Both the position numbers and the translations under genes were made by a program. From NCBI GenBank assembly GCA_049651825.1, contig JBASCV010000169.1, forward strand, positions 1 to 48,440: DNA of 48,440 nucleotides, read 5' to 3'. The DNA comes from Bacteroidia bacterium. GTDB taxonomy: Bacteria > Bacteroidota > Bacteroidia > 2-12-FULL-35-15. The notes under the pieces were generated by a model, which worked only from the letters and a program-made list of their open reading frames with translations, searched no databases and was not told where the DNA came from. The stretch's first letter is position 1, and each line of letters starts with the position of its first letter. Positions 1,950 to 42,045 of the stretch are shown here, in pieces.

Positions 1950-2972
<1,023 letters not shown>

Positions 2973-3001
2973 TCAAAAAAATTGATTTTAAACAAATCAA
3001 A

Positions 3002-3705: not shown

Positions 3706-3726
3706 TTAAAATAAAAAATAGCTTAT

Positions 3727-3780: not shown

Positions 3781-3865
3781 TATTGACATTTAGTAGTTGT
3801 TTTTTCGTTGATACTTAAATAATGATAAAACAACATATTTTATTATTTGAATCTTTTCTACAACA

Positions 3866-5317: not shown

Positions 5318-5415
5318 AAACGAAAATAGGAAAGCGAGAACATTAATAATCGGAGTTGGATTATAAACAAAACAAAAAACGTATAATCAAGTTAATCTAT
5401 TTTATTTTTCGTATT

Positions 5416-5440
5416 CGACCCTTTTAGGGTCGTTTATTTA
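5416..5440 (+). terminator. Intrinsic terminator after gatA
   Basis: Stem CGACCC / GGGTCG with loop TTTTA, followed by TTTATTTAT. Confidence 0.6.
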
Positions 5441-5511
5441 TAACGGTATCGTAATTTCTATTCATATTTGACTCCTTCGGAGTCGAGCTAAAATTGAACT
5501 TTGGTTAATAG

Positions 5512-5925
5512 CTATTTAACACTCGTATCCAATATACTTATCACCACTTCGCTTTGGTTGTCGGAAACCGAAAGTAGTGTTACTTTAAAGTGTCTCCAGT
5601 TTATGCTTGCAGATTTTTGAGTTACGCCCATGTAAATGATGAGTTCTTCTAAATAATCTTTTGCAACAGCTTCAAAAAAGTAAACACCAGTAGTTGCTGC
5701 AAATGGTTCGTTGGGCGATGATGACGAGTTTTCGTGACTATAGCGCATATAGCCCAATTTTACCTGTTCGTTTAAAGCCGCTTTGCGTTCGCCAACTCTT
5801 AATGTTAGTGTGTCGCAGTTTTTTGTTGTTTTTATTTCTACTACAGCATTTTCTTGTGCAGGGGCTTGTTGTGCTCTACAAAGTATAAATAAACCGAATA
5901 AGGTGTAAAAAAATAGTTTTTTCAT
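5512..5925 (-). CDS. Hypothetical secreted protein
   Basis: The ORF-track start at 5973 is trimmed to the internal ATG at 5925, which gives a clean signal peptide MKKLFFYTLFGLFILCRAQQ. No recognisable family. Confidence 0.5.
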   Translation of the reverse strand: MKKLFFYTLFGLFILCRAQQAPAQENAVVEIKTTKNCDTLTLRVGERKAALNEQVKLGYMRYSHENSSSSPNEPFAATTGVYFFEAVAKDYLEELIIYMGVTQKSASINWRHFKVTLLSVSDNQSEVVISILDTSVK

Positions 5926-5998
5926 AAAATTTATATTGTAACAAAAATGCCTTGTTGAATTCCAACAAGGCATTTTTATTGACTTTTATAATGGTTAG

Positions 5999-6763
5999 TT
6001 ATGCTTTTGCTAATTGTCCGGTTAATATTTCTGCATCCACTAAAATTCTTCCGCAATGCTCACATACGATAATTTTTTTGTGTGTACGAATATCTAACTG
6101 ACGTTGAGGAGGAATTTTATTGAAACATCCACCACAAGCATCACGCTCAACAGTAACAACACCTAAGCCGTTCATTACATTTGCACGAATACGTTTGTAA
6201 GCATTCAATAAACGTTCTTCAATAACAGCTTCTGATGCAGCAGATTTTTTTATCAATGCTGTTTCTTCTTTTTCTGTTTCGGCAACTATTTCTTCAAGCT
6301 CTTTTCTTTTGATTGTTAAATCTTTCTTACGGCTTTCAAGCTCTTCTGCTGATTCGTCAGCAATTGCTTTTTTAGCAAGTATGTTTGCTTTATATTCTTT
6401 AATGCGTTTTTCAGCCAATTGAATTTCCAAATTTTGGAATTCAATTTCTTTGGTGATAGAATCGTACTCACGGTTGTTACGTACTTTTCCTTGTTGAGTT
6501 TCGTATTTTTTGATTAATGCTTGCGCATCTTTCATTATGTTTTTTTTCTCGGTAATAGAGTCTTCCAGTGCCGTTAGTTCTTGTGTATAGTTTGCTATAC
6601 GCGTTTCTAAACCAGCAACCATATCTTCCAAATCTCTAACTTCTAAAGGCAATTCACCTCTAACGATTCTGATTTTATCAATTTTTGAGTCAATTTGCTG
6701 TAATTCATACAATGCTCTTAACTTTTCCTCTACCGAAATTTCGTCAGTTTTAGTTTTCGACAT
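5999..6763 (-). CDS. Coiled-coil protein with C-terminal C4 zinc ribbon (COG1579-like)
   Basis: 254 aa with long heptad-rich helices and a terminal CGGC...x17...CEHC motif. It lies immediately downstream of the Nif3 gene, the usual conserved pairing. Confidence 0.8.
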   Translation of the reverse strand: MSKTKTDEISVEEKLRALYELQQIDSKIDKIRIVRGELPLEVRDLEDMVAGLETRIANYTQELTALEDSITEKKNIMKDAQALIKKYETQQGKVRNNREYDSITKEIEFQNLEIQLAEKRIKEYKANILAKKAIADESAEELESRKKDLTIKRKELEEIVAETEKEETALIKKSAASEAVIEERLLNAYKRIRANVMNGLGVVTVERDACGGCFNKIPPQRQLDIRTHKKIIVCEHCGRILVDAEILTGQLAKA

Positions 6764-6765
6764 CT

Positions 6766-7860
6766 TTATAAATAGTTTATTGGATTTGTATTAATAGTTG
6801 ATATAAGGAATACAAAAGTAGTAAATTTTTTATTCAAAACCTCATAAAATAATTCCTTTGTAAACTGTTCGCTCTCATAATGGCCAATATCGGCTATTAC
6901 AATGCGGTTTTCGGCATCAAAAAACTGATGATATTTATAATCGGCCGTTATAAACACATCTGCTTGATTTCCAATAGCATCTTTCAACAAAAAGCTACCC
7001 GAACCACCACAAATTGCTACTTTTTTCACTTTTTTGCCAAGTGGAGCTGTATAACGCACACAACTTGCTTGCATTGAACGCTTTACGTGTTTTAAAAAAT
7101 CGATTTCATCTTGTTCCTCGGCTAATTCTCCAATAATTCCTGCTCCCACTTGTGAATTACTGTTGCTGAGGCTTATAAGGTCGTAGGCAACTTCCTCGTA
7201 TGGATGGCTAGCAAAAAGCGCTCTTAAAACCTGTGATTCAATGTGTTGTGGGTAAATAGTTTCTATTTTTACTTCGTTTTCTTGATGCTGCACTCCTTTT
7301 TCACCCACAAAAGCGTTTGTATTATTTCCAGCCTTAAATGTACCCATACCTGTGCTATTAAAGCTACATTCGTCATAATTACCAATGGCTCCGCAGCCAG
7401 CAGCAAAAAGTGCATTGCGAACTGTATCTGCCTGTTTTTCAGGACAAAAGGCAATTAGTTTTTTCAATCCTCCTTTTTGAGGAACCAATATTTTGCAGTT
7501 AACCAATCCCAGTTTTTCGGCAATTTTAGCATTTACACCATTGTGTACATTGTCCAAATTGGTATGAGCCGAATAAATGGCAATATTATTTTTAATGGCT
7601 TTTATCAATACTCGCTCAATGTAATTTTTACCGTTCAGCTTTTTTATTCCCGAAAACACAATGGGGTGGTGTGCAATTATCAAATTACAACCCAAAGTAA
7701 TTGCTTCGTCAACCACGGCTTCGGTGCTATCTAAACAAATAAGCGCTTTTGTAAGCTCCATATCGGCCGAACCACAAATTAAACCCGCATTATCATAGCT
7801 TTCTTGATAGGCTAATGGAGCGTACTGTTCGAGGTAATTGGTAATGTCTTTAACTTTCAT
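6766..7860 (-). CDS. Nif3-like dinuclear metal centre protein (GTP cyclohydrolase 1 type 2 homologue)
   Basis: 364 aa with motifs IIAHHPIVF, SAHTNLD and DIGHYESE, plus the inserted middle domain typical of long Nif3 proteins. Confidence 0.88.
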   Translation of the reverse strand: MKVKDITNYLEQYAPLAYQESYDNAGLICGSADMELTKALICLDSTEAVVDEAITLGCNLIIAHHPIVFSGIKKLNGKNYIERVLIKAIKNNIAIYSAHTNLDNVHNGVNAKIAEKLGLVNCKILVPQKGGLKKLIAFCPEKQADTVRNALFAAGCGAIGNYDECSFNSTGMGTFKAGNNTNAFVGEKGVQHQENEVKIETIYPQHIESQVLRALFASHPYEEVAYDLISLSNSNSQVGAGIIGELAEEQDEIDFLKHVKRSMQASCVRYTAPLGKKVKKVAICGGSGSFLLKDAIGNQADVFITADYKYHQFFDAENRIVIADIGHYESEQFTKELFYEVLNKKFTTFVFLISTINTNPINYL

Positions 7861-8039
7861 TGGTAAATATCAATTTATAATCTACTAAGGTACAAAATGC
7901 AAATAAGCTTATGTGTTAATTTCGTCTATAAATTATGCTCATTCGTAATAAAAATATAGAAATAAATTAAAAATAACACTATTTAAACACCAACTTCATT
8001 ATAGATTCATAAATTTACAGTTGTTTAATTAATTTTACC

Positions 8040-8528
8040 TTGGGAAAACATACTCTTAAAATAGAATATGATTTTGATTTTGTGTTGATTGGCATCTCTT
8101 CTCACGAAAAAGATTATAGATTGTGTTGGGCTATCAATAAAGCATTAGAGATTGATTTAATAAAAATAGATTCACTGGAAATCAAACAGAAAAAAGACAA
8201 TGAATCCTCTTTTTTTTCTTTGTTTCATTTTGAAAACCCTGATGAGTTTAAAGAGTATTTTATTGTTTCTAACTTAAGCGAAGACAAACAATTTGTAAGC
8301 AAAAACCTTACTCTTTTCAATAAACAGCCTCAAGGTGCTCAATCTGCCGAAAATGGAGTATTGATTCCTGAGCAAAAACAAATGAATTATTTTTTCATCA
8401 TTAGAGGAGAGCTAGATGATGTGGATGTAAATGAATATATAAAAAAGATAAAAAAAATTGACTTTGTTTTAACTGCTCTAGAAATAGATGCTGCTGCTTT
8501 AAAGTCGAAATCAAATTTGGTGTTTTAA
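8040..8528 (+). CDS. IPExxxVDY-family protein (function unknown)
   Basis: 162 aa with a TTG start. It shows N-terminal DFDFVLIGISSHEKDYRLCWAIN and the family-like IPEQKQMNY motif. It sits directly upstream of pyk. Family assignment is from memory. Confidence 0.6.
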   Translation: MGKHTLKIEYDFDFVLIGISSHEKDYRLCWAINKALEIDLIKIDSLEIKQKKDNESSFFSLFHFENPDEFKEYFIVSNLSEDKQFVSKNLTLFNKQPQGAQSAENGVLIPEQKQMNYFFIIRGELDDVDVNEYIKKIKKIDFVLTALEIDAAALKSKSNLVF

Positions 8529-8544
8529 TGTAAATAAGAATAAA

Positions 8545-9978
8545 ATGAAAAGAACAAAAATTGTAGTAACCTTAGGGCCAGCATCTTCATCGTTTGAAGT
8601 AATTGAAAAAATGGTATTGGCTGGTGCCGATGTTTGTCGCATTAATTTTTCGCATGGCTCCTACGAAAATGTTTTAGAACAAATAAATAACATTCGTGAA
8701 GTAAATAAAAAGCTAGATGCACATACAGCCATATTAGCAGATTTACAAGGGCCTAAATTACGTATTGGTGTAGTAGAAAATAATGGTGTAGAGCTCGTAT
8801 CGGGAAACGAAATTACCATTACAACAGAAGAGTGTGCAGGAACAGCCGAACGTATTTATATTACCTATCCTCAGTTTCCGAAAGATGTAAAAGTAGGTGA
8901 AAGCATATTGATTGACGATGGCAAATTGGTTTTAAAAGTTGTTGCTACCAATGGAACAAATGAAGTAAAAGCAATTGTTAGTCATGGGGGAATTTTATCT
9001 TCAAAAAAAGGCGTGAATTTACCAAACACTAAAATCTCCTTGCCTTGCCTTACTCCAAAAGATATTAAAGATTTAGAATTTGCTTTGGCGCAAAACATTG
9101 ATTGGATAGGCCTTTCCTTTGTTCGTTCAGCAGCCGATATTATTGAGTTAAAGCACTTGATTCAAAATTTTGTTCATGGCTCAAAAGCTAAAGTTGTAGC
9201 AAAAATAGAAAAGCCCGAAGCGATTTTAGAAATAGATAATATCATTAAAGAAACCGATGCAATTATGGTTGCCCGTGGCGATTTAGGCGTTGAAGTACCA
9301 ATGCAAGAAGTGCCCATTATTCAAAAAATGTTGGTGCGAAAATGTTTAGAGCAAAGCAAACCTGTAATTATTGCAACCCAAATGATGGAAAGCATGATTA
9401 CCAACATAAGTCCTACAAGAGCCGAAGTGAGTGATGTTGCAAATAGCGTTATGGACGGTGCTGATGCCGTTATGTTAAGCGGTGAAACATCCGTTGGCAA
9501 TCACCCCGAAAAAGTAGTAGAAGCAATGACAAAAATTATTGAACACGTAGAGGAAGAAAGCATCATTTACAACCGCGATAATGCCGCACCAGAACTTAAC
9601 ATCTACAACGACCGCTTTATATCGGATTCTATTTGCTACACTGCCGCAAAAATGGCACAACGTACCAAGGCCGAAGCAATTATTACAATGACGCACTCTG
9701 GTTACACGGCATTTAAGTTGTCGAGTCATCGCCCCAAGGCTTATATATATGTGTTTACAGACAATCACCACATTCTTACAACACTAAATTTGGTATGGGG
9801 CGTAAAAGGTTTTTATTACGATAAAAACATTAGCACCGACCACACAATTGCTGATATTAAATTCATTTTAAAGAAAAACGGATACGTAAAACCACACGAT
9901 TTAATCATCAATATTGCTAGTGTTCCGTTGAGTGAAAAAGGAAAATCAAACATGGTAAAACTAAGTGAAGTAGAGTAG
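8545..9978 (+). CDS. pyk: Pyruvate kinase
   Basis: 477 aa with TKIVVTLGPAS, NFSHG and MVARGDLGVE motifs and a C-terminal regulatory domain. Confidence 0.95.
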   Translation: MKRTKIVVTLGPASSSFEVIEKMVLAGADVCRINFSHGSYENVLEQINNIREVNKKLDAHTAILADLQGPKLRIGVVENNGVELVSGNEITITTEECAGTAERIYITYPQFPKDVKVGESILIDDGKLVLKVVATNGTNEVKAIVSHGGILSSKKGVNLPNTKISLPCLTPKDIKDLEFALAQNIDWIGLSFVRSAADIIELKHLIQNFVHGSKAKVVAKIEKPEAILEIDNIIKETDAIMVARGDLGVEVPMQEVPIIQKMLVRKCLEQSKPVIIATQMMESMITNISPTRAEVSDVANSVMDGADAVMLSGETSVGNHPEKVVEAMTKIIEHVEEESIIYNRDNAAPELNIYNDRFISDSICYTAAKMAQRTKAEAIITMTHSGYTAFKLSSHRPKAYIYVFTDNHHILTTLNLVWGVKGFYYDKNISTDHTIADIKFILKKNGYVKPHDLIINIASVPLSEKGKSNMVKLSEVE

Positions 9979-10017
9979 TTTAAAAATATTCGTTTTATAA
10001 ATAAATATTGATTAAAA

Positions 10018-10368
10018 ATGAAAAAAATATATTACCTAAGCTCTTGCTCCACATGTACAAGAATTATTTCGAAGTTGGGCATCAGCCCTAAAACCTTTAC
10101 TTTTCAGGATATTAAAACCGAAAAAATTACCGAAGCTCAACTTGATGAAATGAAAAAAATGGCTGGTAGTTACGAAGCCTTGTTTAGCAGAGTAGCGATG
10201 AAATACAGAGCTTTAGGCCTGGATAAACAAACATTGCAAGAAAACGATTACAAAAAATACATTCTTGAGGAATACACTTTTTTAAAGCGTCCAGTAATTA
10301 TAATTGGTAAAAATATTTTTATTGGAAATTCTAAAAAAACGGTTGCTGAAGCAAAAGCAGCGCTTTAA
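10018..10368 (+). CDS. ArsC/Spx/MgsR-family (arsenate-reductase-like thioredoxin fold) protein
   Basis: 116 aa with an N-terminal YYLSSCSTC (CxxC-like) motif and family-typical length. Confidence 0.8.
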   Translation: MKKIYYLSSCSTCTRIISKLGISPKTFTFQDIKTEKITEAQLDEMKKMAGSYEALFSRVAMKYRALGLDKQTLQENDYKKYILEEYTFLKRPVIIIGKNIFIGNSKKTVAEAKAAL

Positions 10369-10386
10369 CTTTTTTCAATTTATTTT

Positions 10387-11298
10387 GTGAGTATGAGTAA
10401 GGTGTTGAGAGCCCATCTAGCATTGTTAATTGTGAACATTATTTATGGAGCCAATTATTCAATTGCTAAAGAGGTGATGCCATTGTATATTCAGCCCTTT
10501 GCTTTTGTTGTGATGCGAGTTGTGGGTGCCACTATTTTATTTTGGATAGTAGGTACATTATTTATTAGAGAAAAAATAGATAAAAAAGATTTGCCAAAAC
10601 TTGCGCTACTTGCCGTTTTTGGTGTTGCTGGTAATCAACTCTTTTTTTTAAAAGGATTAAGCTTAACTACACCCATAAACGCTTCTATCATTATGGTTTC
10701 CAATCCTATTGTAGTTATGATTGTGGCGGCAATAGTTTTAAAAGAAAAAATTTCGTTATTAAAAATCATTGGAATTGTAATTGGTGTTTCTGGGGCATTA
10801 TTTCTGTTATTGTTTAACAAACAATTTAGCTTTGGTTCGGAAACAATGGTTGGCGATTCGTTAATTTTTTTAAACTCTCTTTTTTGGGCAGCTTACATTA
10901 TCCTTGTAAAACCCTTAATGAATAAGTACAATACACTTACAATTGTAAAATGGGTGTTTTTGTTTGGTTGCTTCTATGTTATTCCGTTCGGTTACAAAGA
11001 TTTTGAGACCATTAATTGGCAATCAATTCCTCCGCATATTTGGTGGAACATTGCTTTTGTTGTGTTGATAACCACATTTGTTGCCTACTTGTTAAATACC
11101 TATGCATTAAAAGCTTTAAGTCCTTCTGTTGTTAGCATTTACATTTATCTTCAGCCTTTTTTAACAACACTCATCGCTATTTTTTATTATAACAACGATG
11201 AGTTAGATGTACGAAAAATAGTATCTGGTTTACTTATAATTTTAGGCGTTTATTTAGTAAGCAAAACCAAACACAAAAAGGTGGTAAAAAAGGTATAG
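10387..11298 (+). CDS. EamA/DMT-family transporter
   Basis: 303 aa with about 10 predicted TM helices in two EamA-like halves. The track start is GTG at 10387, and ATG at 10393 is an alternative. Confidence 0.85.
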   Translation: MSMSKVLRAHLALLIVNIIYGANYSIAKEVMPLYIQPFAFVVMRVVGATILFWIVGTLFIREKIDKKDLPKLALLAVFGVAGNQLFFLKGLSLTTPINASIIMVSNPIVVMIVAAIVLKEKISLLKIIGIVIGVSGALFLLLFNKQFSFGSETMVGDSLIFLNSLFWAAYIILVKPLMNKYNTLTIVKWVFLFGCFYVIPFGYKDFETINWQSIPPHIWWNIAFVVLITTFVAYLLNTYALKALSPSVVSIYIYLQPFLTTLIAIFYYNNDELDVRKIVSGLLIILGVYLVSKTKHKKVVKKV

Positions 11299-11309
11299 GA
11301 GTGAAGTGT

Positions 11310-14300
11310 TTATCTTATTAAGGTAATTGTGCCTTTGTATTTATGCGTATTGTTTTTAAAGTCAAGCACCTTTATAGAGTAAACATACACATCTTTTTTG
11401 GCAACTTCACTACCATTATTTATTGTTCCGTCCCAAGGTTTGTTTAAATCATCTGTTCTATAAACAAGCGTTCCCCAGCGATCGAAAATGAGCATTTCTA
11501 TTGATGTAACAAAAGTTCCTGTTCCAATAAATGTATCGTTTACACCATCATCATTGGGAGTAAATGCGCTTGGAATATAAAACATAAAATCAGGATCAAT
11601 AATTACTTGATGATTAATTGTGTTAGTACATCCGTAAAGTGTACCTGTTTCAAGCGAAACCATGTATGTTCCTGTTAATGAATAGGTGTGAGGTGGAGGT
11701 GAAAACAATGAACTGGTATCACCATCTCCAAATTGCCAAGCCCAGAAATTACCGCCAATAGATGTGTTTGTGAAGTTTATTACAGGGTCGGTAATTGTTG
11801 TGCTTTGTGGTGAGGCAAAAAACTCTGTAACAGGCAATGGATAAACCGTTATATGGTTGTTTTTAGATAAACTACTAACACAACCGCTATCAGAAGTAAC
11901 ACTTAGGTTTACACTATACTGTGTTAGAGCAAAAACAGAGTCGCTATTAAAACAATAGTTTGGCGAGTTTTGATTGCTAAAGGATGTACCATTGCTAATT
12001 GTCCATAAATTATTGGTGTTTGTTCCGGTTGCAATACTCGATAAATTATTAAATGTAACGCACAGTGGTTCGCAGCCAACGGTATCGCTAGAACTAAATG
12101 CAACTTGAGGGTTGGGGTTTACAAAAACTGTTTTTGTTATAGAATCCAAACAACCAAATGTTGATGTAACTTTTAGTTGAACAGGATATGAACCGTTTGT
12201 TGCATAAGCGTGTTGGGTATTTGAGCCAATCCCTGTATTATTATCTCCCAAACTCCACAACCATTGTGTAATAACATCATTGCTTATGTTATTAGTTAGC
12301 GTTGATTGACTAGTAAAAACATTCGTGTCTCCTAAACAAACATTCGTAAAATTAAAATCCGATACTGGTAATGGGTGTACAACAAGGCTATCAATAATGG
12401 TATCTTTGCACGAGTTGTTTGTTGTTACTATTAATTCTATCATATGTTGTCCAAAGTTATCGTAAAGATGTGTTGGGTTTTGTATTGTTTCTGTAGGGCT
12501 CGAATCGCCAAAACTCCAGTTCCAATTCGTAATCGTATTTCCATTTGTTACAGTTGATATATCATTAAATAATATGCTTTGTTGTAAGCAAACATCATTA
12601 GCAGTATATGTTGCAACAGGCATTGGAAATATTGTTACAGAGTCGGTTGTTGTGTCGGCACAAGCTAAATTTGAAGAGCGTGTAATTAAAGTTATTAAAT
12701 AATTTCCTGCACTTGAATACAAATGCCTTGGATTAACCTCAACAGTATTTAGTGGACTACCATCACCAAAATCCCAACTCCAAGTTGCAATGGTTCCCAT
12801 TGTTGGGTTTACAGAAGTATTGAAAAAGTTTACAGAGTCAATTAAACACTCATTTTCAACTGTAAAGTTCGCAACAGGAGGGTCAAAAACATTTATCGTT
12901 TTATTTGATGCGTTTGCACAGCCTTGATTGGTAGTAACCAACAACGTTACGCTATAGCTACCCGCATTTGAATAAAGGTGAGTTGGATTTTGTTCATTAT
13001 TGGTTGGGCTACCATCATTAAACACCCATAAATGAGATGAAATATTTGCCGAATTGTGTATCGATGACGAATCAATAAAATGCGTTGAGTCATTTAAACA
13101 AACATCTAATGCATTAAAATGTGAAATAGGATTATGATATACTGTTACAGTTTTAGTAATAGTATCCGCACAGGTAAAATTGTTTTTCACAATCAGCGTT
13201 ACATTATATGTACCAGTTGATGAATAGGTGTTTGCTGGATTTTGTGCACTATCTAAAGGAGTCGCATCACCAAAATTCCATGACCAAAAATTAATTGAAC
13301 CAGATGAAGTTGAAGAACTGTCGACAAAATGAGTAACACTACCTTGACAAACATTTTCACCACTAAACTTGGCAATGGGGTCGGGGTTTCTTGTAATTAC
13401 AAAGGAAAGCGTATCCCAACACGAATCCGCATCAATAACAGTAACTGTATAAATTCCTGCTGATAAATTTGATGCCGTTTGTGTTGTTTGAACAGGAGTT
13501 GTGTTCCAGCTATAAGTATATGGTTCTGTTCCACCAGAAACAGTTACTGTAGCGCTTCCATCAAAACTATTTAAACAGGTTTCATTAACAATGCCAAGTA
13601 CATTGTTACCTCCTAGAGTTTGGTATTGCGAAAGATTTAACTCATCAACAGCGTTTATTGTAATTGAATCGGTGTATGTGTGACAGAAAGGGTCGGTAAC
13701 AGTACAGGTATATGTACCAGGGGCAAGGCTATCAATGCTTGAGGTTGTTTCACCACCTGGTTGCCACAAATACGCATACGGTGTTGTTCCACCAGAAACA
13801 CTAACACTAGCTCTTCCTCCTTTACAAGAAGCATCATTCCCACTTATTACAACATTAAGCTGAGGTGGAGGAGTGCAGCTTATACTATAATTTGCAACAA
13901 AACCTGCTCCGCAAGCCAAAAGGGTTCCCGAAAAACGAGAACTTAAAATAATATCATAAACAGCACCTGGCGTTGGTGTACTTTCAATAAAAGTAAGCGT
14001 TGAATCATATTTTACGATACCGTTTGTTGTGGTGCCAACATAAATATTACCACAAGCATCAGAAGCCATTCCGCTGCATTGGTAATTAACTCCACCAGGT
14101 ACAGTAACAGAGTTTATGGGTGTAAGTGTTGCTTTGTTAAATCTTCTAAGGGTTGTGCCATCATACAAATAAACCCAAGGTCCTTGAACAAGAATACCAT
14201 TTATTCCTTGATAGACACTTGATGAATATGCTGGATTATAAGAATACCCCACGCCATCGTAGATTAAAGACAAACCACTAGGTGCAACGCCTGCTGGTGT

Positions 14301-33111: not shown

Positions 33112-33185
33112 GGTTTCGTAGCTCAACTGAATAGAGCATCTGACTACGGATCAGAAGGTTAGGGGTTTGAATCCCTTCGAGACCA
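33112..33185 (+). tRNA. tRNA-Arg (anticodon ACG)
   Basis: Manual 74-nt cloverleaf: acceptor GGTTTCG/CGAGACC, D arm GCTC-AACTGAATA-GAGC, anticodon arm TCTGA-CTACGGA-TCAGA, variable AGGTT, T arm AGGGG-TTTGAAT-CCCTT, discriminator A. CCA is not encoded. Confidence 0.88.
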
Positions 33186-33190
33186 CTTCT

Positions 33191-33603: not shown

Positions 33604-33689
33604 ATGAAATAGCCATGTTACCAATAAAGCCAAATCAAATAAATAAAACATGGTTATACCATACGACCATGAAAGCATTATAATTGCGT
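33604..33689 (+). promoter_or_regulatory. Leader element copy C: minimal ORF plus a 22-codon upstream ORF between the XRE gene and hsdR
   Basis: It starts 1 nt after the XRE stop with ATGAAATAGCCATGTT, identical to the first 16 nt of copies A and B. The uORF at 33615-33683 encodes MLPIKPNQINKTWLYHTTMKAL, and its stop lies 6 nt before the hsdR ATG. Confidence 0.55.
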
Positions 33690-36600
33690 ATGAAATTTAA
33701 CGAAGACTCAAGAGTAAAAATACCAGCGCTACTGCATCTAACGAGATTGGGATATTCCTATATTTCTCGTAAAGAACATTTTAGGAGAAATGAAGAATGT
33801 AATATTTTCCCAGAGTTATTTTTAGCTTCAATTTCAAAAATTAATCCCGGTGTTGCAACAAATGAAATAGAAAAACTATTAGAGGAATTAATTCTAAAAT
33901 TGGATTATGATGACTTAGGGAAAGCTTTTTATAACGAGTTAACTAAATCATCAGGTATTAAATTAATCGACTTTCAGAATTTTCAGAACAACTCATTTCA
34001 TGTTACAACGGAACTCACTTGCAAAAATGGTGATGAAGAATTTAGGCCTGATATAACTGTTCTTATTAATGGAATGCCGCTTGTTTTTATAGAAGTAAAA
34101 AAGCCCAATAATAAAGAAGGTGTGATTGCAGAACGTAACCGAATAAATGCTCGCTACCAAAACAGAAAGTTCAAACGCTTCGCAAATATTACACAGTTGA
34201 TGATATTCTCCAATAACATGAACTATGAGGACGGAGTAGTAGAGCCTTTAATGGGGGCTTTTTATGCAACATCATCATTAAAAGATTTACATTTCAATTA
34301 TTTTAGAGAAGAAGAGAATCTGAATCTCACCTATTTACTAGCTTCTGAAAATGATGCTATTGAAAACACTGTTTTAAAAGATAACAATGTTGAAGTGATT
34401 AAGCACTCTCCTGAATTTCAGCAAAACAAACATTACAATACACCAACAAATAATATCATCACTTCTCTATTAAGTAAAGATCGTTTAGCGTTTATGCTCA
34501 ATTATTCCATTGCTTATGTGGAGGAAGAAGTGAATGGCAAGAAAGAATTGCAAAAGCATATCATGCGTTATCCGCAGATTTTTGCATGTAGAGCCATTGA
34601 AAGAAAATTAGATGAAGGTGTTAAAAAGGGAATTATATGGCACACGCAAGGATCTGGCAAAACAGCTCTTGCTTATTATAATGTAAAGTTCTTGACCAAC
34701 TATTATCAAAAGAAAAACATTATACCTAAATTCTATTTTATTGTAGATCGTATTGACTTGGCTATACAAGCGAGTTCTGAATTTGCCAATCGTGGTTTGA
34801 GAGTCAATAGAGTTAATTCAAAATCCGATTTTGTTAGCGACTTGCAAACTCTTGGCGCTATTCATAATGACAGCGGTCAAGCAGAAATTACCGTTATCAA
34901 TATTCAAAAGTTTAGTGAGGAAGCGGTTGTATTAAAGGACATTAATTACGATCTCAATATTCAACGTATTTATTTCTTGGATGAAGCTCACCGTTCTTAC
35001 AATCCTAAAGGTAATTACTTAGCCAACTTAATTAATTCAGATAAAAGCGCCATTAAAATAGCCTTAACAGGAACACCATTATTGAAACAGGTAATTGGTG
35101 AATATGATAGCAAGGCTTTATTTGGAGATTATATTCATAAATACTATTACAACCGTTCTATTGCCGATGGTTATACCTTACGTTTAATACGTGAAGGAAT
35201 AGACACCAATTACAAAATGAAGATGAAGGAAATCCTTTCTCAGATTGATGTATTAAAAGGTGATGTTGAGAAGAAGTTGGTTTATGCTCATCCTAAATAT
35301 GTAGAACCATTACTTGATTACATATTGGAGGATTTGTACCGCTTTAGAAGTACAGAAGCTGACGACTCCTTAGGCGGGATGGTTGTTTGTGATTCTTCTG
35401 AACAAGCAAAAGCTTTATTTGAGCAATTTGAAAAGCGTTTTGGCATTCAGGAAACAGAAGCTGTAAATTTGAGTATGGCAGCCGAACCGCTTGTTATATA
35501 CGGACAACCTCGCCAGAAATTACGCGCTGCTATCATTTTGCACGATGTGAATGATAAGGACATCCGTAAGGATTTAATTGATGCTTTCAAAAAAGGAAAG
35601 ATAGATGTACTGTTTGTATTTAATATGCTTTTAACGGGCTTTGATGCTAAACGTTTGAAGAAGCTATATCTTACCCGTATTATAAAAGATCATAATTTAT
35701 TACAAACACTTACCAGAGTTAATAGACCTTATAAACATTACAAATTTGGCTATGTGGTAGATTTTGCCGACATCACTTCTGCTTTTGATCGCACTAACAA
35801 ATTATACTTTGACGAATTGCAAACAGAACTAGGCTCAGATATTGAGGGTTATAGTATGCTGTTTAAATCGGCTGAAGAAATTGAACAAGACATTCAAAAA
35901 ATACGAGAAACACTATTTCAGTACGATACATTGAATGCCGAAAACTTTAGCCAACAAGTTAGCGAGATACGTGATAAAAAAATACTTAACGAAATTATAA
36001 AAGCTTTACGCACAGCTAAAGAATTAAAGAACATTATTCGACTGGAAGGTTATGATGACCTTTTGCAAAAAATGGACTTCTTTAAATTAAATCAGTTGTT
36101 AAATGTGGCGGAGGCTCGGTTAGGAATGATTAATAGCGTAGATGCCATTCAAAATAGTACCGATACAACCAGCTTGATTAATACGGCTTTAGAAGATATT
36201 TACTTTGTATTCACTAAAATATCAGAAAGTGAGTTAATATTAGCTGATGAATTAAAAAGCTGGCTTCGTAAAACACGCGAGGGCATGCAAGATAATTTCG
36301 ATCAGCAAGACCCTCGCTTTATTTCTCTGAAAGAAGAACTGGAACGCATCTTCAAAAAGAAAAACATGGAAGAAGTAACTCAGGAAGAGATGAGAGACAA
36401 CATAGTTCTTCTGAAATCCATTTACGAGCGAGTGCGTGAATTGAATCGTCAGAATGATTTACTGAAAGCGAAATATCAGCAAGATGAAAAATATGTGCGC
36501 ATCCACAAACGATTGAAAGAACAAAGCACATTAAGTTTAAAAGAAATAGAGCTATATGAAGCTTTACAACATTTGAAACTGAATACTGATGAGCAACTCA

Positions 36601-36776
36601 TGAACAATAACCGTTTAGTAGAAAACGAAAGTTATTTTGAGGAGTACATCATGCAAATGCTTGTTAGAGAACTAAAACAGGAGAAAAAAATAAATCTTGA
36701 TTTTAATACAGCACAAGCCATTAACACATTAATTGTAAACGAGTATTTAACTCAATATAACGGAAGAAGGGTATGA
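33690..36776 (+). CDS. hsdR: Type I restriction enzyme, R subunit
   Basis: N-terminal nuclease motif RPDITVLINGMPLVFIEVKK and helicase motifs GSGKT (I), DEAH (II) and TRVNR (VI). ATG 33690 is preferred over the TTG at 33684. A 4-nt ATGA overlap links it to hsdM. Confidence 0.93.
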   Translation: MKFNEDSRVKIPALLHLTRLGYSYISRKEHFRRNEECNIFPELFLASISKINPGVATNEIEKLLEELILKLDYDDLGKAFYNELTKSSGIKLIDFQNFQNNSFHVTTELTCKNGDEEFRPDITVLINGMPLVFIEVKKPNNKEGVIAERNRINARYQNRKFKRFANITQLMIFSNNMNYEDGVVEPLMGAFYATSSLKDLHFNYFREEENLNLTYLLASENDAIENTVLKDNNVEVIKHSPEFQQNKHYNTPTNNIITSLLSKDRLAFMLNYSIAYVEEEVNGKKELQKHIMRYPQIFACRAIERKLDEGVKKGIIWHTQGSGKTALAYYNVKFLTNYYQKKNIIPKFYFIVDRIDLAIQASSEFANRGLRVNRVNSKSDFVSDLQTLGAIHNDSGQAEITVINIQKFSEEAVVLKDINYDLNIQRIYFLDEAHRSYNPKGNYLANLINSDKSAIKIALTGTPLLKQVIGEYDSKALFGDYIHKYYYNRSIADGYTLRLIREGIDTNYKMKMKEILSQIDVLKGDVEKKLVYAHPKYVEPLLDYILEDLYRFRSTEADDSLGGMVVCDSSEQAKALFEQFEKRFGIQETEAVNLSMAAEPLVIYGQPRQKLRAAIILHDVNDKDIRKDLIDAFKKGKIDVLFVFNMLLTGFDAKRLKKLYLTRIIKDHNLLQTLTRVNRPYKHYKFGYVVDFADITSAFDRTNKLYFDELQTELGSDIEGYSMLFKSAEEIEQDIQKIRETLFQYDTLNAENFSQQVSEIRDKKILNEIIKALRTAKELKNIIRLEGYDDLLQKMDFFKLNQLLNVAEARLGMINSVDAIQNSTDTTSLINTALEDIYFVFTKISESELILADELKSWLRKTREGMQDNFDQQDPRFISLKEELERIFKKKNMEEVTQEEMRDNIVLLKSIYERVRELNRQNDLLKAKYQQDEKYVRIHKRLKEQSTLSLKEIELYEALQHLKLNTDEQLMNNNRLVENESYFEEYIMQMLVRELKQEKKINLDFNTAQAINTLIVNEYLTQYNGRRV

Positions 36777-38392
36777 CCAAACATTTAGAATTTATAACAC
36801 AAACCAAATCACTGATTGATAGTTTAAAGAGTGTTTGTGCCAATTACGGACTAGGTAATGATGGAAACGAATTCAAAATCATTACGCAAATGTTCTTGTA
36901 CAAGTTCATGAATGATAAGTTCAGTTTTGAAGCCAAGAAAAATGAACCAAAATTGGCTAAGGCGAAGAACTTTCAGGAAGCATTGGAAAAGCTGAAAAAG
37001 GATGAGTACAAATTTTTATTGGCAGCCAATGGGCCTGATATCCCAAAATTGTATGCCAACCACACCATTACGCATTTATACAACAGCCAAACACAACCCG
37101 ATTTTGCAGTACTGTTTGATGACACTTTGCGTGCCATAAGCATTAATAATACTGACATTTTTTCTGTAAAATCATCCAGTGGTTCTAAGGACAAAATGTT
37201 TGATGAGTTGAGTCAATTTATTTCCGATTCTTCTCAGCGCGATGCGTTTTGCCGTGCGCTTATTAATAAACTGTTCGAATTTAGTTTCGAAAACATGTTT
37301 GGCGAGAAGTATGATTTTTTTGCCACCATTTTTGAATACCTCATAAAAGATTACAATACCGATAGTGGCGGAAAGTATGCTGAGTATTACACACCACATG
37401 CCGTAGCTCGTATTATGGCTGCTATTATGGTTCCTGAAAAAGTAAAACGTGTAACTTGTTATGATCCAAGTGCAGGATCGGGAACACTATTAATGAACTT
37501 AGCGCATGCCATTGGCGAAAAGAATTGCAGCATTTATTCTGAAGATATTTCTCAAAAATCATCGAGTATGTTGCGATTAAATTTGGTCTTAAACAATTTA
37601 TCGCATTCTATCCCAAACATTATTAAAACCAACACTATTGCCGAACCATATTATTTAGATAAGAAATTTGATTACATCGTTTCTAATCCCCCATTTAAAT
37701 TAGATTTCTCCGATTTTAGAGATCAACTAGAGAAAGATAGTTTTAAAGAACGTTTTTTTGCGGGTATACCAAACGTGCCAAAAAACAAAAAGGAAAGCAT
37801 GGCAATTTATGTGTTGTTTATACAGCACATTATGTATAGCCTGAGTGATAAAGGAAAAGCCGCCATTGTATTACCTACAGGTTTTATTACCGCACAAAGT
37901 GGTATAGAACGTAAAATACGTGAGCAATTAATAGAAAGAGGTTGGTTGCGTGGTGTGGTGAGTATGCCGAGTAATATTTTTGCGAGTACAGGTACAAATG
38001 TTAGCGTGTTATTTATTGACCGAAAAGCGGATAACGAACACATTGTGCTGGTTGATGCAAGCAAATTAGGTGAAACCATTAAAGATGGTAAGAACCAACG
38101 CACCGTGCTAAGAGAGAAAGAAGAACAACGCATTATAGATGCAATGAACTTAAAAAAGGCGGAAGATGATTTTAGTGTAGTGGTAACACAAGATGACATT
38201 CGCGATAAAAACTACAGCTTTAGTGCTGGGCAATATTTTGAAGTGAAGATTGAATACTCTGAAATAACGCCAAATGAGTTCGCAAAGAAAATGGAAAACT
38301 ATAAGTCCAATTTAGATAACTTATTTTCTGAATCTAAAAAGTTGGAGAAAGAAATTCAGAAACAGTTGGAGGGATTGAAGTATGAAGCTTAA
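36773..38392 (+). CDS. hsdM: Type I restriction-modification N6-adenine DNA methyltransferase, M subunit
   Basis: 539 aa with the AdoMet motif DPSAGSGTLL, the catalytic motif NPPF and an EYYTP segment. Confidence 0.93.
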   Translation: MTKHLEFITQTKSLIDSLKSVCANYGLGNDGNEFKIITQMFLYKFMNDKFSFEAKKNEPKLAKAKNFQEALEKLKKDEYKFLLAANGPDIPKLYANHTITHLYNSQTQPDFAVLFDDTLRAISINNTDIFSVKSSSGSKDKMFDELSQFISDSSQRDAFCRALINKLFEFSFENMFGEKYDFFATIFEYLIKDYNTDSGGKYAEYYTPHAVARIMAAIMVPEKVKRVTCYDPSAGSGTLLMNLAHAIGEKNCSIYSEDISQKSSSMLRLNLVLNNLSHSIPNIIKTNTIAEPYYLDKKFDYIVSNPPFKLDFSDFRDQLEKDSFKERFFAGIPNVPKNKKESMAIYVLFIQHIMYSLSDKGKAAIVLPTGFITAQSGIERKIREQLIERGWLRGVVSMPSNIFASTGTNVSVLFIDRKADNEHIVLVDASKLGETIKDGKNQRTVLREKEEQRIIDAMNLKKAEDDFSVVVTQDDIRDKNYSFSAGQYFEVKIEYSEITPNEFAKKMENYKSNLDNLFSESKKLEKEIQKQLEGLKYEA

Positions 38393-39749
38393 TAGAACAA
38401 TTTTAAAAAACCTAACATTAAATATTACTGACGGAGAACATGGGTCTGTAATTGACGATGAAAACGGAAAATATTATCTATTAAGTAATAAAAACATTAT
38501 AAATGGCAAGATAAGTTATAACAATTCAGATAGGAAAATTTCTTCTTTATCTTTTGAAAAAATTAATAGGAGAACCAAACTAAAAAAAGGAGACGTAGTA
38601 ATTTCTACAGTTGGCACAATTGGGAAATCAGCAATAATTTCTGAAGACAATTTGTGTTATGATTTTCAGAGAAGCGTTGGTATCATAAAATGTGATGAGA
38701 CTAAATTATTACCTGACTATTTAAATTATTATTTTAAACAAGATTTTGTTCAAACTAGATTAAATTATCTTTCAAAAGGTGCAGTTCAAAAATGTCTTTT
38801 CATTGGTGATTTGAACTCGTTTGAAATAGATTACCCTAAAGATATTAAAATACAAAAAGGTATAACTGACATACTAGTTACTATAGACTCCAAAATCGAA
38901 CTCAACAATAAAATCAATGCTGAGTTAGAAGCCATGGCAAAAACCATTTACGATTATTGGTTTGTGCAATTTGATTTCCCAAATGCAAAAGGCAAGCCCT
39001 ATAAAAGCAGCGGTGGTAAAATGGTTTGGAATGAGGAGTTGAAGAGGGAAATACCAGTAGGATGGGAGGTTAAAGAGTTAGGTGATGTTATAAACATATT
39101 TGATTCTAAAAGAATACCACTTTCAAAACAACAAAGAGAGAATAGAAAAGGAAATATTCCGTATTACGGAGCCACTGGAGTAATGGACTTCGTAGATGAA
39201 GCTCTTTTTGATGATGAATTTATTTTAATTGCCGAGGATGGATCTGTAATGGATGAGAATGGTCTATTGATTGTGCAATTCATTTGGGGTAAAAGTTGGG
39301 TGAACAATCACGCACACGTAATTCAGGCTAAAGAAAAAAGACATAATGAATATGTTTTTTATCTCTCAAAAAAAATCCAAGCAGTTCAAATAATTACTGG
39401 GTCAATCCAGCTAAAAATAAATCAAGAAAACTTGAAAGGAGTAAAACTTCCATTTCCTCCAAAAAATATATTAGATAGTTTTTGTTCTCAAGCTGATTCA
39501 ATTAGAAAAACTTTGATTAATAACATTGAGCAAAACCAACAACTCGCTTCTCTTCGTGATTGGTTATTGCCAATGTTAATGAATGGGCAGGTGAAAGTTG
39601 GGGATGCTGAGAAGATGGTGGAGGAAAAGTTGAATATGGCTGCGGAGGCTAGAGAAGATTATTCAAATCACAAAGCAAGCAAAGAAAACGGTAAAAAGGT
39701 TAAGTCAAAAACGCTCAAGCTAAAAGCTTTAAATAATTTCAAACAGTAA
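38382..39749 (+). CDS. hsdS: Type I restriction-modification specificity subunit
   Basis: 455 aa with two target-recognition halves separated by the conserved helix ELEAMAKTIYDYWFVQFDFP. The C-terminal helix is LASLRDWLLPMLMNGQV. It overlaps hsdM by 11 nt. Confidence 0.9.
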   Translation: MKLNRTILKNLTLNITDGEHGSVIDDENGKYYLLSNKNIINGKISYNNSDRKISSLSFEKINRRTKLKKGDVVISTVGTIGKSAIISEDNLCYDFQRSVGIIKCDETKLLPDYLNYYFKQDFVQTRLNYLSKGAVQKCLFIGDLNSFEIDYPKDIKIQKGITDILVTIDSKIELNNKINAELEAMAKTIYDYWFVQFDFPNAKGKPYKSSGGKMVWNEELKREIPVGWEVKELGDVINIFDSKRIPLSKQQRENRKGNIPYYGATGVMDFVDEALFDDEFILIAEDGSVMDENGLLIVQFIWGKSWVNNHAHVIQAKEKRHNEYVFYLSKKIQAVQIITGSIQLKINQENLKGVKLPFPPKNILDSFCSQADSIRKTLINNIEQNQQLASLRDWLLPMLMNGQVKVGDAEKMVEEKLNMAAEAREDYSNHKASKENGKKVKSKTLKLKALNNFKQ

Positions 39750-40211
39750 ATGAAATACATGATTATTCGGGATTTTAAAAGAAAAATTTACCTGCTAATT
39801 AGTTCTATTTTGCTAATTTGCAGTTGCAATCTCCTAAGTCCAGGTATTTCACAGTTTGATCATTATTCTTATGTTCAAACTACTTCGGCAAAAGTTGATG
39901 TGCTGAATTTAATGAATTTGGCGAATGAAGATTATCAATTACATCAGAAAGAAATCAATGAGGTGAACACTACCGTTCAAAAAATTGTTGAATATGAAAA
40001 GCATCGACCAAAAAATGATATAACCATTCAGCAATGGGATATTCTCACAGATACAGCAAGGAATTTATATGGTGGTTTTATTGTAAAATGGAAAAGAGAA
40101 AATAGATTAAAAGAAGCCTATCTTACGGAAAAGAAGAAACAAATAGGCGCTGCTTTTGACCAAATCGCGGAGTTAGAAAGTAAGAAAATAAAACCGAAAG
40201 ATATAAAGTAA
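39750..40211 (+). CDS. Hypothetical lipoprotein translationally abutting hsdS
   Basis: The ATG follows the hsdS TAA with no spacer (TAAATG). It has a positively charged n-region, the hydrophobic core IYLLISSILLI and Cys residues (LICSC, lipobox-like). The mature part is helical and charged. No recognised family. Confidence 0.6.
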   Translation: MKYMIIRDFKRKIYLLISSILLICSCNLLSPGISQFDHYSYVQTTSAKVDVLNLMNLANEDYQLHQKEINEVNTTVQKIVEYEKHRPKNDITIQQWDILTDTARNLYGGFIVKWKRENRLKEAYLTEKKKQIGAAFDQIAELESKKIKPKDIK

Positions 40212-40224
40212 ATAAAGCCTGCCA

Positions 40225-40551
40225 ATGGAAGTAGATTTTGAAAACATCTTTAATCAGCTTAAAACAGGAGTGGCTGAAATAGCAAAAAACGCCTTTAAAA
40301 AGCGTGTTTCGGAGATAACACTTGAAGGGCATAAAATATTGACTTCAATTGAAGAAAATATAAAAAATTGGACAGCTCTGATGGTTGATGGAGATATTTC
40401 AAAAAGCGACTTTGAGGATTTAGTCCTTGGACAAAAAGATTTAATTGAAATAGCTGGTTTAAAACAACTCGGATTATCAAAAATACAAGCAGACCAGTTT
40501 AAGAAGGATCTATTAAACCTGATTATAAATACTGTTACAGCCGCAGTTTGA
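40225..40551 (+). CDS. Hypothetical small helical protein
   Basis: 108 aa, 13 nt after the lipoprotein gene. Its composition looks like a real protein, unlike the Cys/Ser/Phe-rich antisense ORFs. No recognised family. Confidence 0.5.
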   Translation: MEVDFENIFNQLKTGVAEIAKNAFKKRVSEITLEGHKILTSIEENIKNWTALMVDGDISKSDFEDLVLGQKDLIEIAGLKQLGLSKIQADQFKKDLLNLIINTVTAAV

Positions 40552-40593
40552 CTATTGCAGTAATTAGTCAAATTGGCGATCAAAGAAAAATTT

Positions 40594-41592
40594 TTAAATC
40601 TCTGTTAACTCAAACGCATATTTGTAGTTTATCAGTTTATGTCCTTTTTCGTTTTCTTTCCACGCCTTTTCTTTATGGCTTATTTCAATAACTTTGTTGG
40701 TTTTTATTCCTTTAAATTTCGCAACTACATCTTTCAACACGTTTAATTCATTTTCATCAAAAAGAGTATTGTTAAACGAGTAGTTTTTATTTGGTTTAAA
40801 CTGTTCGCCAATAGATCCATTGGGGAATTCTGTGAAAATAACATCCACATAATCCCGTGTATAAATGTGCTCAAAAATGCTATTGAAATTGTTGGGTACA
40901 GGCCCCATATTTATGGCTCGATACCTTGCACCGCTTATCGAATAGCCCGTACGCTTATAGTTCAAAAAGTCAGCATAAAATAACAGTTTATTCAATTGTG
41001 TTTTCCATGGCTTTAATTGTTCCGTAAAAAACACCACCATTTCTTTAAATCTGTTATAACTGCTTTTGCGGTAACCTGTATATTCGTCTGGCAAATGCCC
41101 GTCTAGTAAATGTTCTTCGTAAGCAAGTAAGGCTTGCTTGTTTTCCTGTATTAAATATTCAATACGTTTTAGAGTCTTAGTTTTTGTTCGTTCATCGCAA
41201 GTTTCACAGAGTTCCAGCAAATCCCTGAACCGTTTTGGGTTGGCAGCCAGCTGTATCAATTTTCCATTGGCGGCACTGGGCACCTCGCCAGCCTCATAAT
41301 GTCGGTAGCTGTTAATACCAAATCCCAACACTTCCGACATTTTTGTTGCTGGTAAATCATATTGTTCACGGATGGCCCTAATCTCTTCGGGAAACGGTAG
41401 GTTGTGCCTTTCTCGGTATTTATTATACAATTGATTCATGTTCAATTCATCTAGCTTGGTGTCTGTGAATTGTTCTTTTAAATCGTTGTCGTAATAAAAA
41501 TGAAAAACCACATCAAACTTTTCCTTTCTGAACTCCATGTTGCGAGTTTCTTTGCGCAACTCCATTTGTTTACCTGTAATTGGACTTTTCAT
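40594..41592 (-). CDS. Fused antitoxin: Cys-less MqsA-like N-terminal ribbon, XRE-type HTH and DUF4065/Panacea (SocA-like) domain
   Basis: 332 aa. The N-terminus MKSPITGKQMELRKETRNMEFRKEKFDVVFHFYY resembles a YgiT/MqsA ribbon without its cysteines. The HTH is IRAIREQYDLPATKMSEVLGFGINSYRHYEAGE. The C-terminal LNKLLFYADFLNYKRTGYSISGARYRAINMGPVP is typical of DUF4065. Confidence 0.75.
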   Translation of the reverse strand: MKSPITGKQMELRKETRNMEFRKEKFDVVFHFYYDNDLKEQFTDTKLDELNMNQLYNKYRERHNLPFPEEIRAIREQYDLPATKMSEVLGFGINSYRHYEAGEVPSAANGKLIQLAANPKRFRDLLELCETCDERTKTKTLKRIEYLIQENKQALLAYEEHLLDGHLPDEYTGYRKSSYNRFKEMVVFFTEQLKPWKTQLNKLLFYADFLNYKRTGYSISGARYRAINMGPVPNNFNSIFEHIYTRDYVDVIFTEFPNGSIGEQFKPNKNYSFNNTLFDENELNVLKDVVAKFKGIKTNKVIEISHKEKAWKENEKGHKLINYKYAFELTEI

Positions 41593-41690
41593 AAGTGAAT
41601 AATTTATCTTTTAGTTGTCTTATGGAATACGCCAGTTTGAAAAATTATTTTTATCAATTGTTTGTGCTTTTGCAAACATGGCTATTTCAT
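41593..41690 (-). promoter_or_regulatory. Leader element copy A: minimal ORF plus a 19-codon upstream ORF between the toxin and antitoxin genes
   Basis: On the minus strand, 1 nt after the toxin TAA: ATG AAA TAG, CC, then ATG..TAA (41679-41620) encoding MFAKAQTIDKNNFSNWRIP. A 27-nt A-rich spacer follows, then the antitoxin ATG. It is about 85-90% identical to copy B by manual alignment. Confidence 0.6.
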
Positions 41691-41691
41691 A

Positions 41692-42045
41692 TTATAAATT
41701 TTTTAAAGGAAATTTTAAAACGTGCTCTGCAATATGAAACGATATACATATTACACTGGCTCCAGCAATACCCATTGTAACTTTAATGTATATTTCTTTT
41801 TTCTTAATAATCTTGCCAAACACCCACATGTCGGCACCTTTGTATAAAGTATCTTTCAATGGGCCTTCGCAGTAATCCTCAGCAATTAAATTTTCCAACA
41901 CCCGTTTTCTGTCGCTTGGTATCAACTCCAAATCAGCTAATGTTTGAGCGTTCTTTCCGCGTTCATCACGAAAGAGTACATCCCATATTTTCATTTTTTG
42001 TTTAAAATCTTTGAGAAACTTTTCTACCTCTGCTTTTATTAGCAT
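41692..42045 (-). CDS. MqsR-like type II toxin (putative mRNA interferase)
   Basis: 117 aa. The pattern DYCEGP...D...WVFG....EIYIKV.......VICISFH.AEH resembles MqsR-family toxins. It lies upstream of an HTH antitoxin, in the mqsR-mqsA gene order. Assignment is by eye. Confidence 0.6.
   Translation of the reverse strand: MLIKAEVEKFLKDFKQKMKIWDVLFRDERGKNAQTLADLELIPSDRKRVLENLIAEDYCEGPLKDTLYKGADMWVFGKIIKKKEIYIKVTMGIAGASVICISFHIAEHVLKFPLKNL

Follow-up and report, generated by a model that had tools for sequence, protein, structure and literature searches.

The window analysed here, a stretch of 48,440 nucleotides (nt) from a Bacteroidia bacterium of the GTDB lineage 2-12-FULL-35-15 (GenBank assembly GCA_049651825.1, contig JBASCV010000169.1, positions 1 to 48,440 of the forward strand), contains two small open reading frames, ORF1 and ORF2, directly behind hsdS, the gene of the specificity subunit of a type I restriction-modification (R-M) system. 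ORF1 and ORF2 are a strictly conserved gene pair of Bacteroidota. The most probable explanation, to which we assign a probability of roughly 0.6, is that they constitute an autonomous, horizontally mobile and envelope-associated cassette, which hitch-hikes behind hsdS and is not partnered with the restriction complex. An earlier note on this DNA had put the pair forward as a candidate defence accessory appended to the type I R-M operon. Neither an R-M accessory nor a defence module is supported by the distribution of the homologues, which are spread over 38 synteny groups and lie within 10 kb of hsd genes in four species.

Conservation of the gene pair

Homologues of the pair were examined in three sets, namely 64 loci at species level, all from named genomes, 401 genomes sampled from the phylum, and 68 genomes of the genus of the window. 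ORF2 is located directly downstream of ORF1 in 60-62 of the 64 species loci, usually at a distance of 1-40 nt, and an ORF2 homologue follows immediately on the same strand in nearly all of the first 30 loci examined. The paired loci include those of Mucilaginibacter, Chitinophaga, Terrimonas, Ilyomonas, Flavipsychrobacter, Paludibacter, Prevotellaceae, Gaoshiqia, and Hufsiella. ORF1 is present in 20 and ORF2 in 22 of the 401 genomes of the phylum sample, and 19 genomes have both. The pair thus occurs in approximately 5% of the phylum sample, and it was found in 2 of the 68 genomes of the genus. As the two genes are adjacent and show almost identical phyletic patterns, ORF1 and ORF2 are considered a genuine two-gene unit. 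The earlier note had reckoned with homologues that are never paired; they do travel together. No third neighbour is conserved across all loci.

Relatives of ORF1 are found almost only in Bacteroidota records, 65 with the single sequence and 422 with a profile, the latter number referring to members at 90% clustering. They are named just "hypothetical protein" or "lipoprotein" (UniRef names some of them "Lipoprotein") and have no Pfam domain. An exhaustive profile search with ORF2 retrieved 928 representatives at 50% identity, nearly all of which are stand-alone proteins of approximately 108 residues. A widespread two-gene family is hereby defined, with more than 400 clusters at 90% for ORF1 and more than 900 representatives at 50% for ORF2, and neither gene has a family in Pfam or NCBIfam. 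Cultured carriers exist in Mucilaginibacter and Chitinophaga, and Paludibacter propionicigenes WB4 is another.

The pair most similar to that of the window, in locus L055 (positions 133-1384; 77% and 56% identity), is located 90 nt downstream of a tmRNA gene. tmRNA genes are classic integration sites of genomic islands.

Genomic contexts

The 64 species loci were grouped into 38 synteny groups, and the two genes on each side of the pair were tallied for one locus per group. This tally gave 142 Pfam families among 143 proteins, none of which was seen more than four times. The contexts comprise an acyl-carrier/ketoreductase/desaturase cluster, glycolysis genes, genes for cysteinyl-tRNA synthetase, catalase, and ribosomal protein S1, a PIN gene with a transposase, prophage remnants, a mutasome locus with a CHAP hydrolase, and, in Paludibacter propionicigenes WB4, cytochromes with an efflux system. 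CHAP, GH19-like, GH108, and Amidase_2 genes are found near the pair in some loci, and no peptidoglycan hydrolase is among the 25 commonest families of immediate neighbours in the 38 synteny groups. With dozens of such unrelated settings, the pair is most likely a passenger in its islet rather than a partner of the restriction system.

The survey of gene neighbourhoods that had been set beforehand places the homologues mainly outside defence contexts, many of the contexts being housekeeping or metabolic. Defence genes are present among the four flanking genes in about one tenth of the synteny groups, which is an estimate, as the tallies do not resolve loci. The flanking defence genes recognised by PADLOC are a type I methyltransferase, a cyclase of the cyclic oligonucleotide-based antiphage signalling system (CBASS), PDC-M71, and TIR. 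We judge this share of approximately 10% to be close to background, the background rate itself being unmeasured.

With regard to the hsd genes, they lie at most 10 kb from the pair in the window and in three of the 64 species loci retrieved, which corresponds to four species and to approximately 6% of the loci. These are the window, Hanamia (L008), genome G027 (L050) of the same genus as the window, and Ginsengibacter (L089), and three different hsd systems are involved. The HsdM proteins of L008 and L050 carry the N6_Mtase and HsdM_N domains, and in L089, a phmmer search with the HsdR protein of the window retrieved a large protein whose gene adjoins an hsdS homologue. The pair of Hanamia is oriented divergently from the hsd genes and is followed by CBASS. 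In G027, a truncated ORF1 starts 12 nt after the stop codon of a different hsdM, whose product is 27% identical. This last locus (L050/L141, positions 62-9863) also exhibits foreign genes between the subunits of its type I R-M system, in the order hsdR, a DUF433/PIN_10 pair, hsdS, a DUF1186/SEC-C protein, a 109-residue ORF, Schlafen AlbA_2, and hsdM.

The largest synteny group comprises 11 loci, with Terrimonas, Flavitalea, Ilyomonas, Agriterribacter, Mucilaginibacter, and Hufsiella among the genera. The pair is found there, all on one strand, with a propeller-type histidine kinase of approximately 1040-1350 residues (Reg_prop/Y_Y_Y/HisKA_3), whose Reg_prop and Y_Y_Y modules are periplasmic, a LuxR-type regulator (Response_reg and GerE), a Bestrophin-like protein (PF14023) with four transmembrane segments, and a protein with multiple transmembrane segments and no family. 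Some loci add a GH19-like protein. Locus L104 (positions 6071-12387) is an example of this block, which is also present in L090, L100, L101, L102, L107, and L109. As the gene set is kept even though the gene order varies, which is a usual sign of functional coupling, the block would place the function of the pair at the envelope. An envelope-related role, such as maintenance or stress response, is therefore suggested by this conserved neighbourhood, and the kinase, the LuxR-type regulator, the Bestrophin-like protein, and the membrane protein provide the best lead to the biology of the pair. The membrane protein without family shows a conserved RPRHQN...GFF.DILSD.NGIS.HRFQN motif.

Predicted properties of the two proteins

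The N-terminus of ORF1 exhibits a basic n-region, MKYMIIRDFKRK, followed by the hydrophobic core IYLLISSILLI and by a lipobox (LICSC, with the predicted cleavage site CS|C26). The signal peptide corresponds to residues 1-25, and the codon of the lipobox Cys26 is at positions 39825-39827. In an alignment with 34 relatives, this cysteine is near-invariant, and G, S, A, or C is found at position -1. Because ORF1 has a single hydrophobic stretch, which ends in the conserved lipobox cysteine, this stretch is read as a cleavable lipoprotein signal. The family alignment is thus in agreement with the claim of the earlier note that ORF1 is probably an exported lipoprotein. The placement of this lipoprotein at the cell surface, which the note had also considered, is less probable. 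In Bacteroidota, an acidic cluster after the lipoprotein cysteine goes with export to the surface, and no such cluster follows the cysteine in the family alignment, so ORF1 most likely faces the periplasm.

The AlphaFold2 model of ORF1, with a predicted local distance difference test score (pLDDT) of 88, is all-helical and consists of the signal helix and a compact four- or five-helix bundle (helices 35-59, 62-84, 90-100, 107-117, and 122-143). The invariant residues of the mature protein are T45, K48, K78, Y82, R86, and W114. As these residues are polar, basic, or aromatic, they could form a binding site for a ligand or a partner.

The model of ORF2 (pLDDT 92) shows two helices of approximately 50 residues (5-54 and 60-107) arranged as a hairpin. 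ORF2 exhibits neither a signal peptide nor a transmembrane or hydrophobic segment. Phage spanins combine a lipoprotein of the outer membrane with an inner-membrane protein bearing an N-terminal transmembrane helix, both encoded in the lysis region. The gene order and the gene sizes of the pair are atypical for spanins, and a spanin or lysis cassette is not indicated, as ORF2 appears to be a soluble hairpin lacking a hydrophobic segment and the pair has no match in phage records. In another protein, P0241, the hairpin domain of ORF2 is fused to an N-terminal helix-hairpin-helix and to a long Lys/Pro-rich region resembling histone H1. This fusion hints at a cytoplasmic, perhaps nucleoid-associated, setting of the ORF2 domain.

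Neither ORF1 nor ORF2 reaches any curated cut-off in Pfam or NCBIfam, and their matches in PHROGs are weak and at chance level (E of 0.01 or worse). The single match in PADLOC is that of ORF1 to the Csx23 model, which is treated below. Searches against the PDB sequences with single proteins and with profiles gave nothing meaningful, and the ORF1 family profile had no match at E ≤ 10. A search of the pair by tblastn against 50,697 phage records and 72,556 plasmids gave no match. The Foldseek comparison that had been proposed for both proteins was carried out against the PDB and viral models and returned generic helical bundles or hairpins, none of them significant. For ORF1, the matches in the PDB are generic four-helix bundles, the best of which is the periplasmic four-helix sensor domain of NarX, with template modelling (TM) scores of 0.54/0.69 and a non-significant E-value of 0.5. 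Among viral models, the best matches of ORF1 are two uncharacterised phage proteins of similar size (E of 0.012 and 0.14, TM scores of approximately 0.55), one of which is annotated as a lipoprotein.

The sensor domain of NarX/NarQ and the ligand-binding domains of 4HB chemoreceptors are similar to mature ORF1 in size, predicted topology, and extracytoplasmic location, and the invariant basic and aromatic residues of ORF1 could line a binding site. In contrast to these domains, ORF1 would be a free lipoprotein, as it is not part of a larger transmembrane signalling protein, and it shows no sequence similarity to them.

Proposed mode of action and alternative explanations

If ORF1 and ORF2 form an autonomous envelope-associated cassette, ORF1 would be exported and lipid-anchored through Cys26 as a small four-helix bundle facing the periplasm. 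ORF2, encoded by the next frame at close spacing, would be produced in amounts equal to those of ORF1, as a soluble or membrane-peripheral antiparallel helical hairpin, which would probably oligomerise, and the two proteins may interact. The cassette, at the 3' end of the hsd operon in an islet bordered by a tRNA-Arg gene, would work apart from the restriction complex.

Several observations weigh against this explanation. The pair adjoins type I R-M genes more often than a random gene would, and some loci are beside CBASS, TIR-domain genes, toxin-antitoxin loci, a tmRNA gene, or prophage remnants; these defence-type neighbours leave room for a role in defence or exclusion. The two-component-system context is found in just 11 of the 64 loci. 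Finally, ORF2 is placed in the cytoplasm solely by its missing signal peptide, and a cytoplasmic ORF2 would have no obvious link to a periplasmic ORF1.

The pair could accordingly be a stand-alone anti-phage or exclusion module acting at the envelope, for example by blocking the entry of DNA in the periplasm, and collecting in defence islands. Two small genes with a sporadic, horizontal distribution would fit such a module, as would an islet shared with hsdRMS and a toxin-antitoxin locus, the position of the pair in Hanamia, flanked by type I R-M on one side and by CBASS on the other, and the decayed copy behind the hsdM of a different type I system with embedded PIN and Schlafen genes. TIR_2, CBASS cyclase, and PDC-M71 genes flank the pair in a few loci, and the similar-sized phage proteins, one of them annotated as a lipoprotein, are its best viral fold matches. 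Nevertheless, a recognised flanking defence gene is found in an estimated 10% of the synteny groups only, many contexts are core metabolism or housekeeping, no match was found in the phage records and plasmids searched, the PADLOC match is an artefact, and the most conserved context is that of the two-component system and the membrane proteins. We therefore regard this explanation as rather unlikely, and we find it unlikely that the pair is a new self-contained envelope anti-phage or exclusion system that has been acquired repeatedly by CBASS/TIR islands and, at their 3' ends, by different type I R-M operons. Known exclusion lipoproteins, namely Llp of T5, Cor of phi80, and TraT of F, are each encoded by one gene on the phage or plasmid in question. 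ORF1 resembles them as a small lipoprotein on accessory DNA, and exclusion is the mechanism that the earlier note had envisaged. In contrast to them, ORF1 has an obligate non-exported partner and no detectable homologue in the phage and plasmid collections, and its contexts are mostly chromosomal and non-prophage.

Alternatively, the pair could be a selfish addiction module, in which a harmful envelope lipoprotein and its neutraliser would explain both the strict pairing and the mobility. The strict two-gene operon with its tight spacing, the patchy spread over many insertion contexts, and the frequent proximity of other toxin-antitoxin loci or of tRNA/tmRNA genes are consistent with this idea. 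However, neither protein resembles a toxin or antitoxin family in Pfam, NCBIfam, PADLOC (the artefact aside), or PHROGs, and no DNA-binding domain is present for autoregulation. Moreover, a cytoplasmic antidote could act only before export, and a synteny kept over the long term by several genera, here with a two-component system, is unusual for a toxin-antitoxin locus. An addiction module thus seems improbable.

Organization and expression of the locus

The features of the islet are listed in Table 1. The pair is located in an accessory islet between a tRNA-Arg gene and lspA. As this tRNA gene forms a border, the hsd genes, the pair, and a convergent toxin-antitoxin locus are considered to fill the islet. 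Neither direct nor inverted flanking repeats that would delimit a mobile unit were found around the pair.

Table 1. Features of the accessory islet, with positions in the window.
Feature	Position	Strand	Basis and remarks
tRNA-Arg(ACG)	33112-33186	+	ARAGORN; left border of the islet
hsdR, type I restriction subunit	33684-36776	+	1030-residue ORF; operon position; phmmer query
hsdM, type I methyltransferase	36773-38392	+	Homologous to HsdM of L008 and L050
hsdS, specificity subunit	38382-39749	+	Pfam Methylase_S, 6.4e-34
ORF1, lipoprotein precursor (predicted), 153 residues	39750-40211	+	Family alignment; AlphaFold2
ORF2, two-helix hairpin protein (predicted), 108 residues, obligate partner of ORF1	40225-40551	+	AlphaFold2; adjacency
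Stable hairpin	40542-40578		RNA fold; inverted repeat I13; between the convergent ORF2 and antitoxin genes
Convergent toxin-antitoxin locus	40594-42045	-	Pfam, NCBIfam; islet neighbour outside the pair
Antitoxin, MqsA-like/HTH/Panacea	40594-41592	-	Pfam SocA_Panacea, 1.4e-20; TIGR03830, 2.3e-14
Small toxin of the convergent locus	41692-42045	-	

The spacing described in the earlier note is correct. The overlap of hsdR and hsdM is 4 nt, that of hsdM and hsdS is 11 nt, the ATG of ORF1 abuts the stop codon of hsdS (TAA|ATG at positions 39747-39752), and ORF1 and ORF2 are separated by 13 nt. ORF1 is thus on the same strand as the hsd genes, with no gap and with a co-translational spacing. The hsdS/ORF1 junction is genuine and no assembly artefact, since contigs of other metagenomes span it with 0-4 differences.

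HsdS exhibits a Lys-rich C-terminal tail (residues ~408-455, positions ~39603-39749), which extends approximately 47 residues past the canonical end of HsdS. The alignment to another HsdS ends at residue 399 of 455, the partner being aligned up to residue 409 of 414. In view of this extension, the abutment of hsdS and ORF1 is the end of an atypical tail, and the sequence upstream of ORF1 in the window is read as part of it. In most other loci, the sequence upstream of ORF1 is non-coding, which implies that the cassette normally has its own promoter. The tail may be a former intergenic sequence, which is now read in frame.

The layout fits the proposal of the earlier note that the pair shares one transcript with hsdS. 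No terminator-like site was found on the + strand from hsdS to the end of ORF2, and the 160 nt upstream of ORF1 contain no Bacteroidota -7 box (TAnnTTTG). The absence of this box is weak evidence, since only 3 of 10 other loci show it upstream of ORF1. A scan for sigma-70 promoters gave matches at chance level, and the sigma-70 model is unsuited to Bacteroidota. The hairpin between ORF2 and the convergent antitoxin gene has a free energy (dG) of -14.4 kcal/mol with a z of -3.1 and is a candidate bidirectional terminator, which would end the hsd-ORF1-ORF2 unit. In the simplest reading, the pair is most likely expressed by read-through from hsdS up to this hairpin, and translation would restart at the TAAATG junction for ORF1.

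This abutting junction, on the same strand and with no terminator, could also be taken to indicate that the pair is an accessory dedicated to the type I R-M system. Its products would then be translated together with HsdS and would modulate restriction, for instance by regulating the complex at the membrane or by anchoring it there. The ORF1 remnant 12 nt after the hsdM stop codon in G027 provides a second case in the genus. However, no hsd gene lies within 10 kb of the pair in approximately 94% of the species loci, the pair in Hanamia is divergent from the hsd genes, and the adjoining hsd systems differ, with HsdM only 27% identical. In addition, mature ORF1 would be exported and so separated from the cytoplasmic enzyme, and the copy in G027 is truncated next to intact hsd genes. 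The distribution already largely refutes a role as R-M accessory, which we consider very improbable. Tight operon-like spacing behind hsdS is thus no proof of a functional link, and the pair should not be counted as an R-M accessory. Lipoprotein and type I R-M genes also share the nuSa-alpha island of Staphylococcus aureus, where a cluster of lpl lipoprotein genes is found beside hsdM/hsdS with no known functional link. The proteins and the phylum are unrelated, and the lpl cluster is a tandem array of paralogues, in contrast to the conserved two-gene pair found here.

In the metagenome runs X2 and X3, related strains match the window almost exactly from the 3' end of hsdS through the pair to the antitoxin gene, with 4 differences in 1459 nt. 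Their hsdM differs by approximately 10%, and the target-recognition regions of their hsdS also differ (window positions 38100-39600), a pattern that suggests mosaic recombination inside the hsd operon.

The Csx23 label of ORF1

The PADLOC model PDLC01072, named Csx23, matches ORF1 with an E-value of 1.3e-8 and all 34 relatives tested (best 1.6e-15). Csx23 is a characterised membrane effector of type III CRISPR systems, activated by cyclic tetra-adenylate (cA4), and comprises two N-terminal transmembrane helices and a C-terminal alpha/beta domain of beta-grasp-like fold (PDB code 8QJK) (PMC11014256). ORF1 resembles it in its length of approximately 150 residues, in its N-terminal hydrophobic segment, and in its match to the PADLOC hidden Markov model. 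In contrast, ORF1 is predicted to be an all-helical lipoprotein, is not located beside cas10, and shows no homology to Csx23.

When applied to the phylum sample, the model retrieved not only the ORF1 loci but also a set of nine further proteins, which belong to another Bacteroidota family. Eight of these nine are encoded immediately upstream of cas10 (L143-L150; genomes G145, G401, G233, G460, G385, G269, G389, and G097), and no Cas10 was detected near the ninth homologue (L151, G405). They comprise approximately 135-165 residues, exhibit an N-terminal transmembrane segment, and are unlike ORF1 in sequence. Through their C-terminal domain, the profile of this set matches 8QJK, the Csx23 domain of known structure, with an E-value of 3.9e-14, whereas its comparison with the ORF1 family profile by hhalign gives a probability of 0.18%. 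No match to Cas10 (Cmr2/Csm1) was found in the 94%-complete genome of the window, and among the genomes with the ORF1 pair that were tested, a convincing Cas10 is present in G379 alone, on another contig.

The assignment of ORF1 as Csx23 was therefore rejected. Although the model matches every family member tested, the genuine cas10-adjacent Csx23 proteins are unrelated to ORF1, the predicted all-alpha fold with a cleavable signal differs from two transmembrane helices and an alpha/beta domain, the ORF1 profile has no match in the PDB, and the genome has no Cas10, so there is almost no chance that ORF1 is a membrane effector of the Csx23 type activated by cyclic oligoadenylate. As PDLC01072 matches two unrelated families at similar moderate scores, its match to ORF1 has no functional meaning. 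Automated defence surveys could thus wrongly annotate a CRISPR effector in approximately 5% of Bacteroidota genomes.

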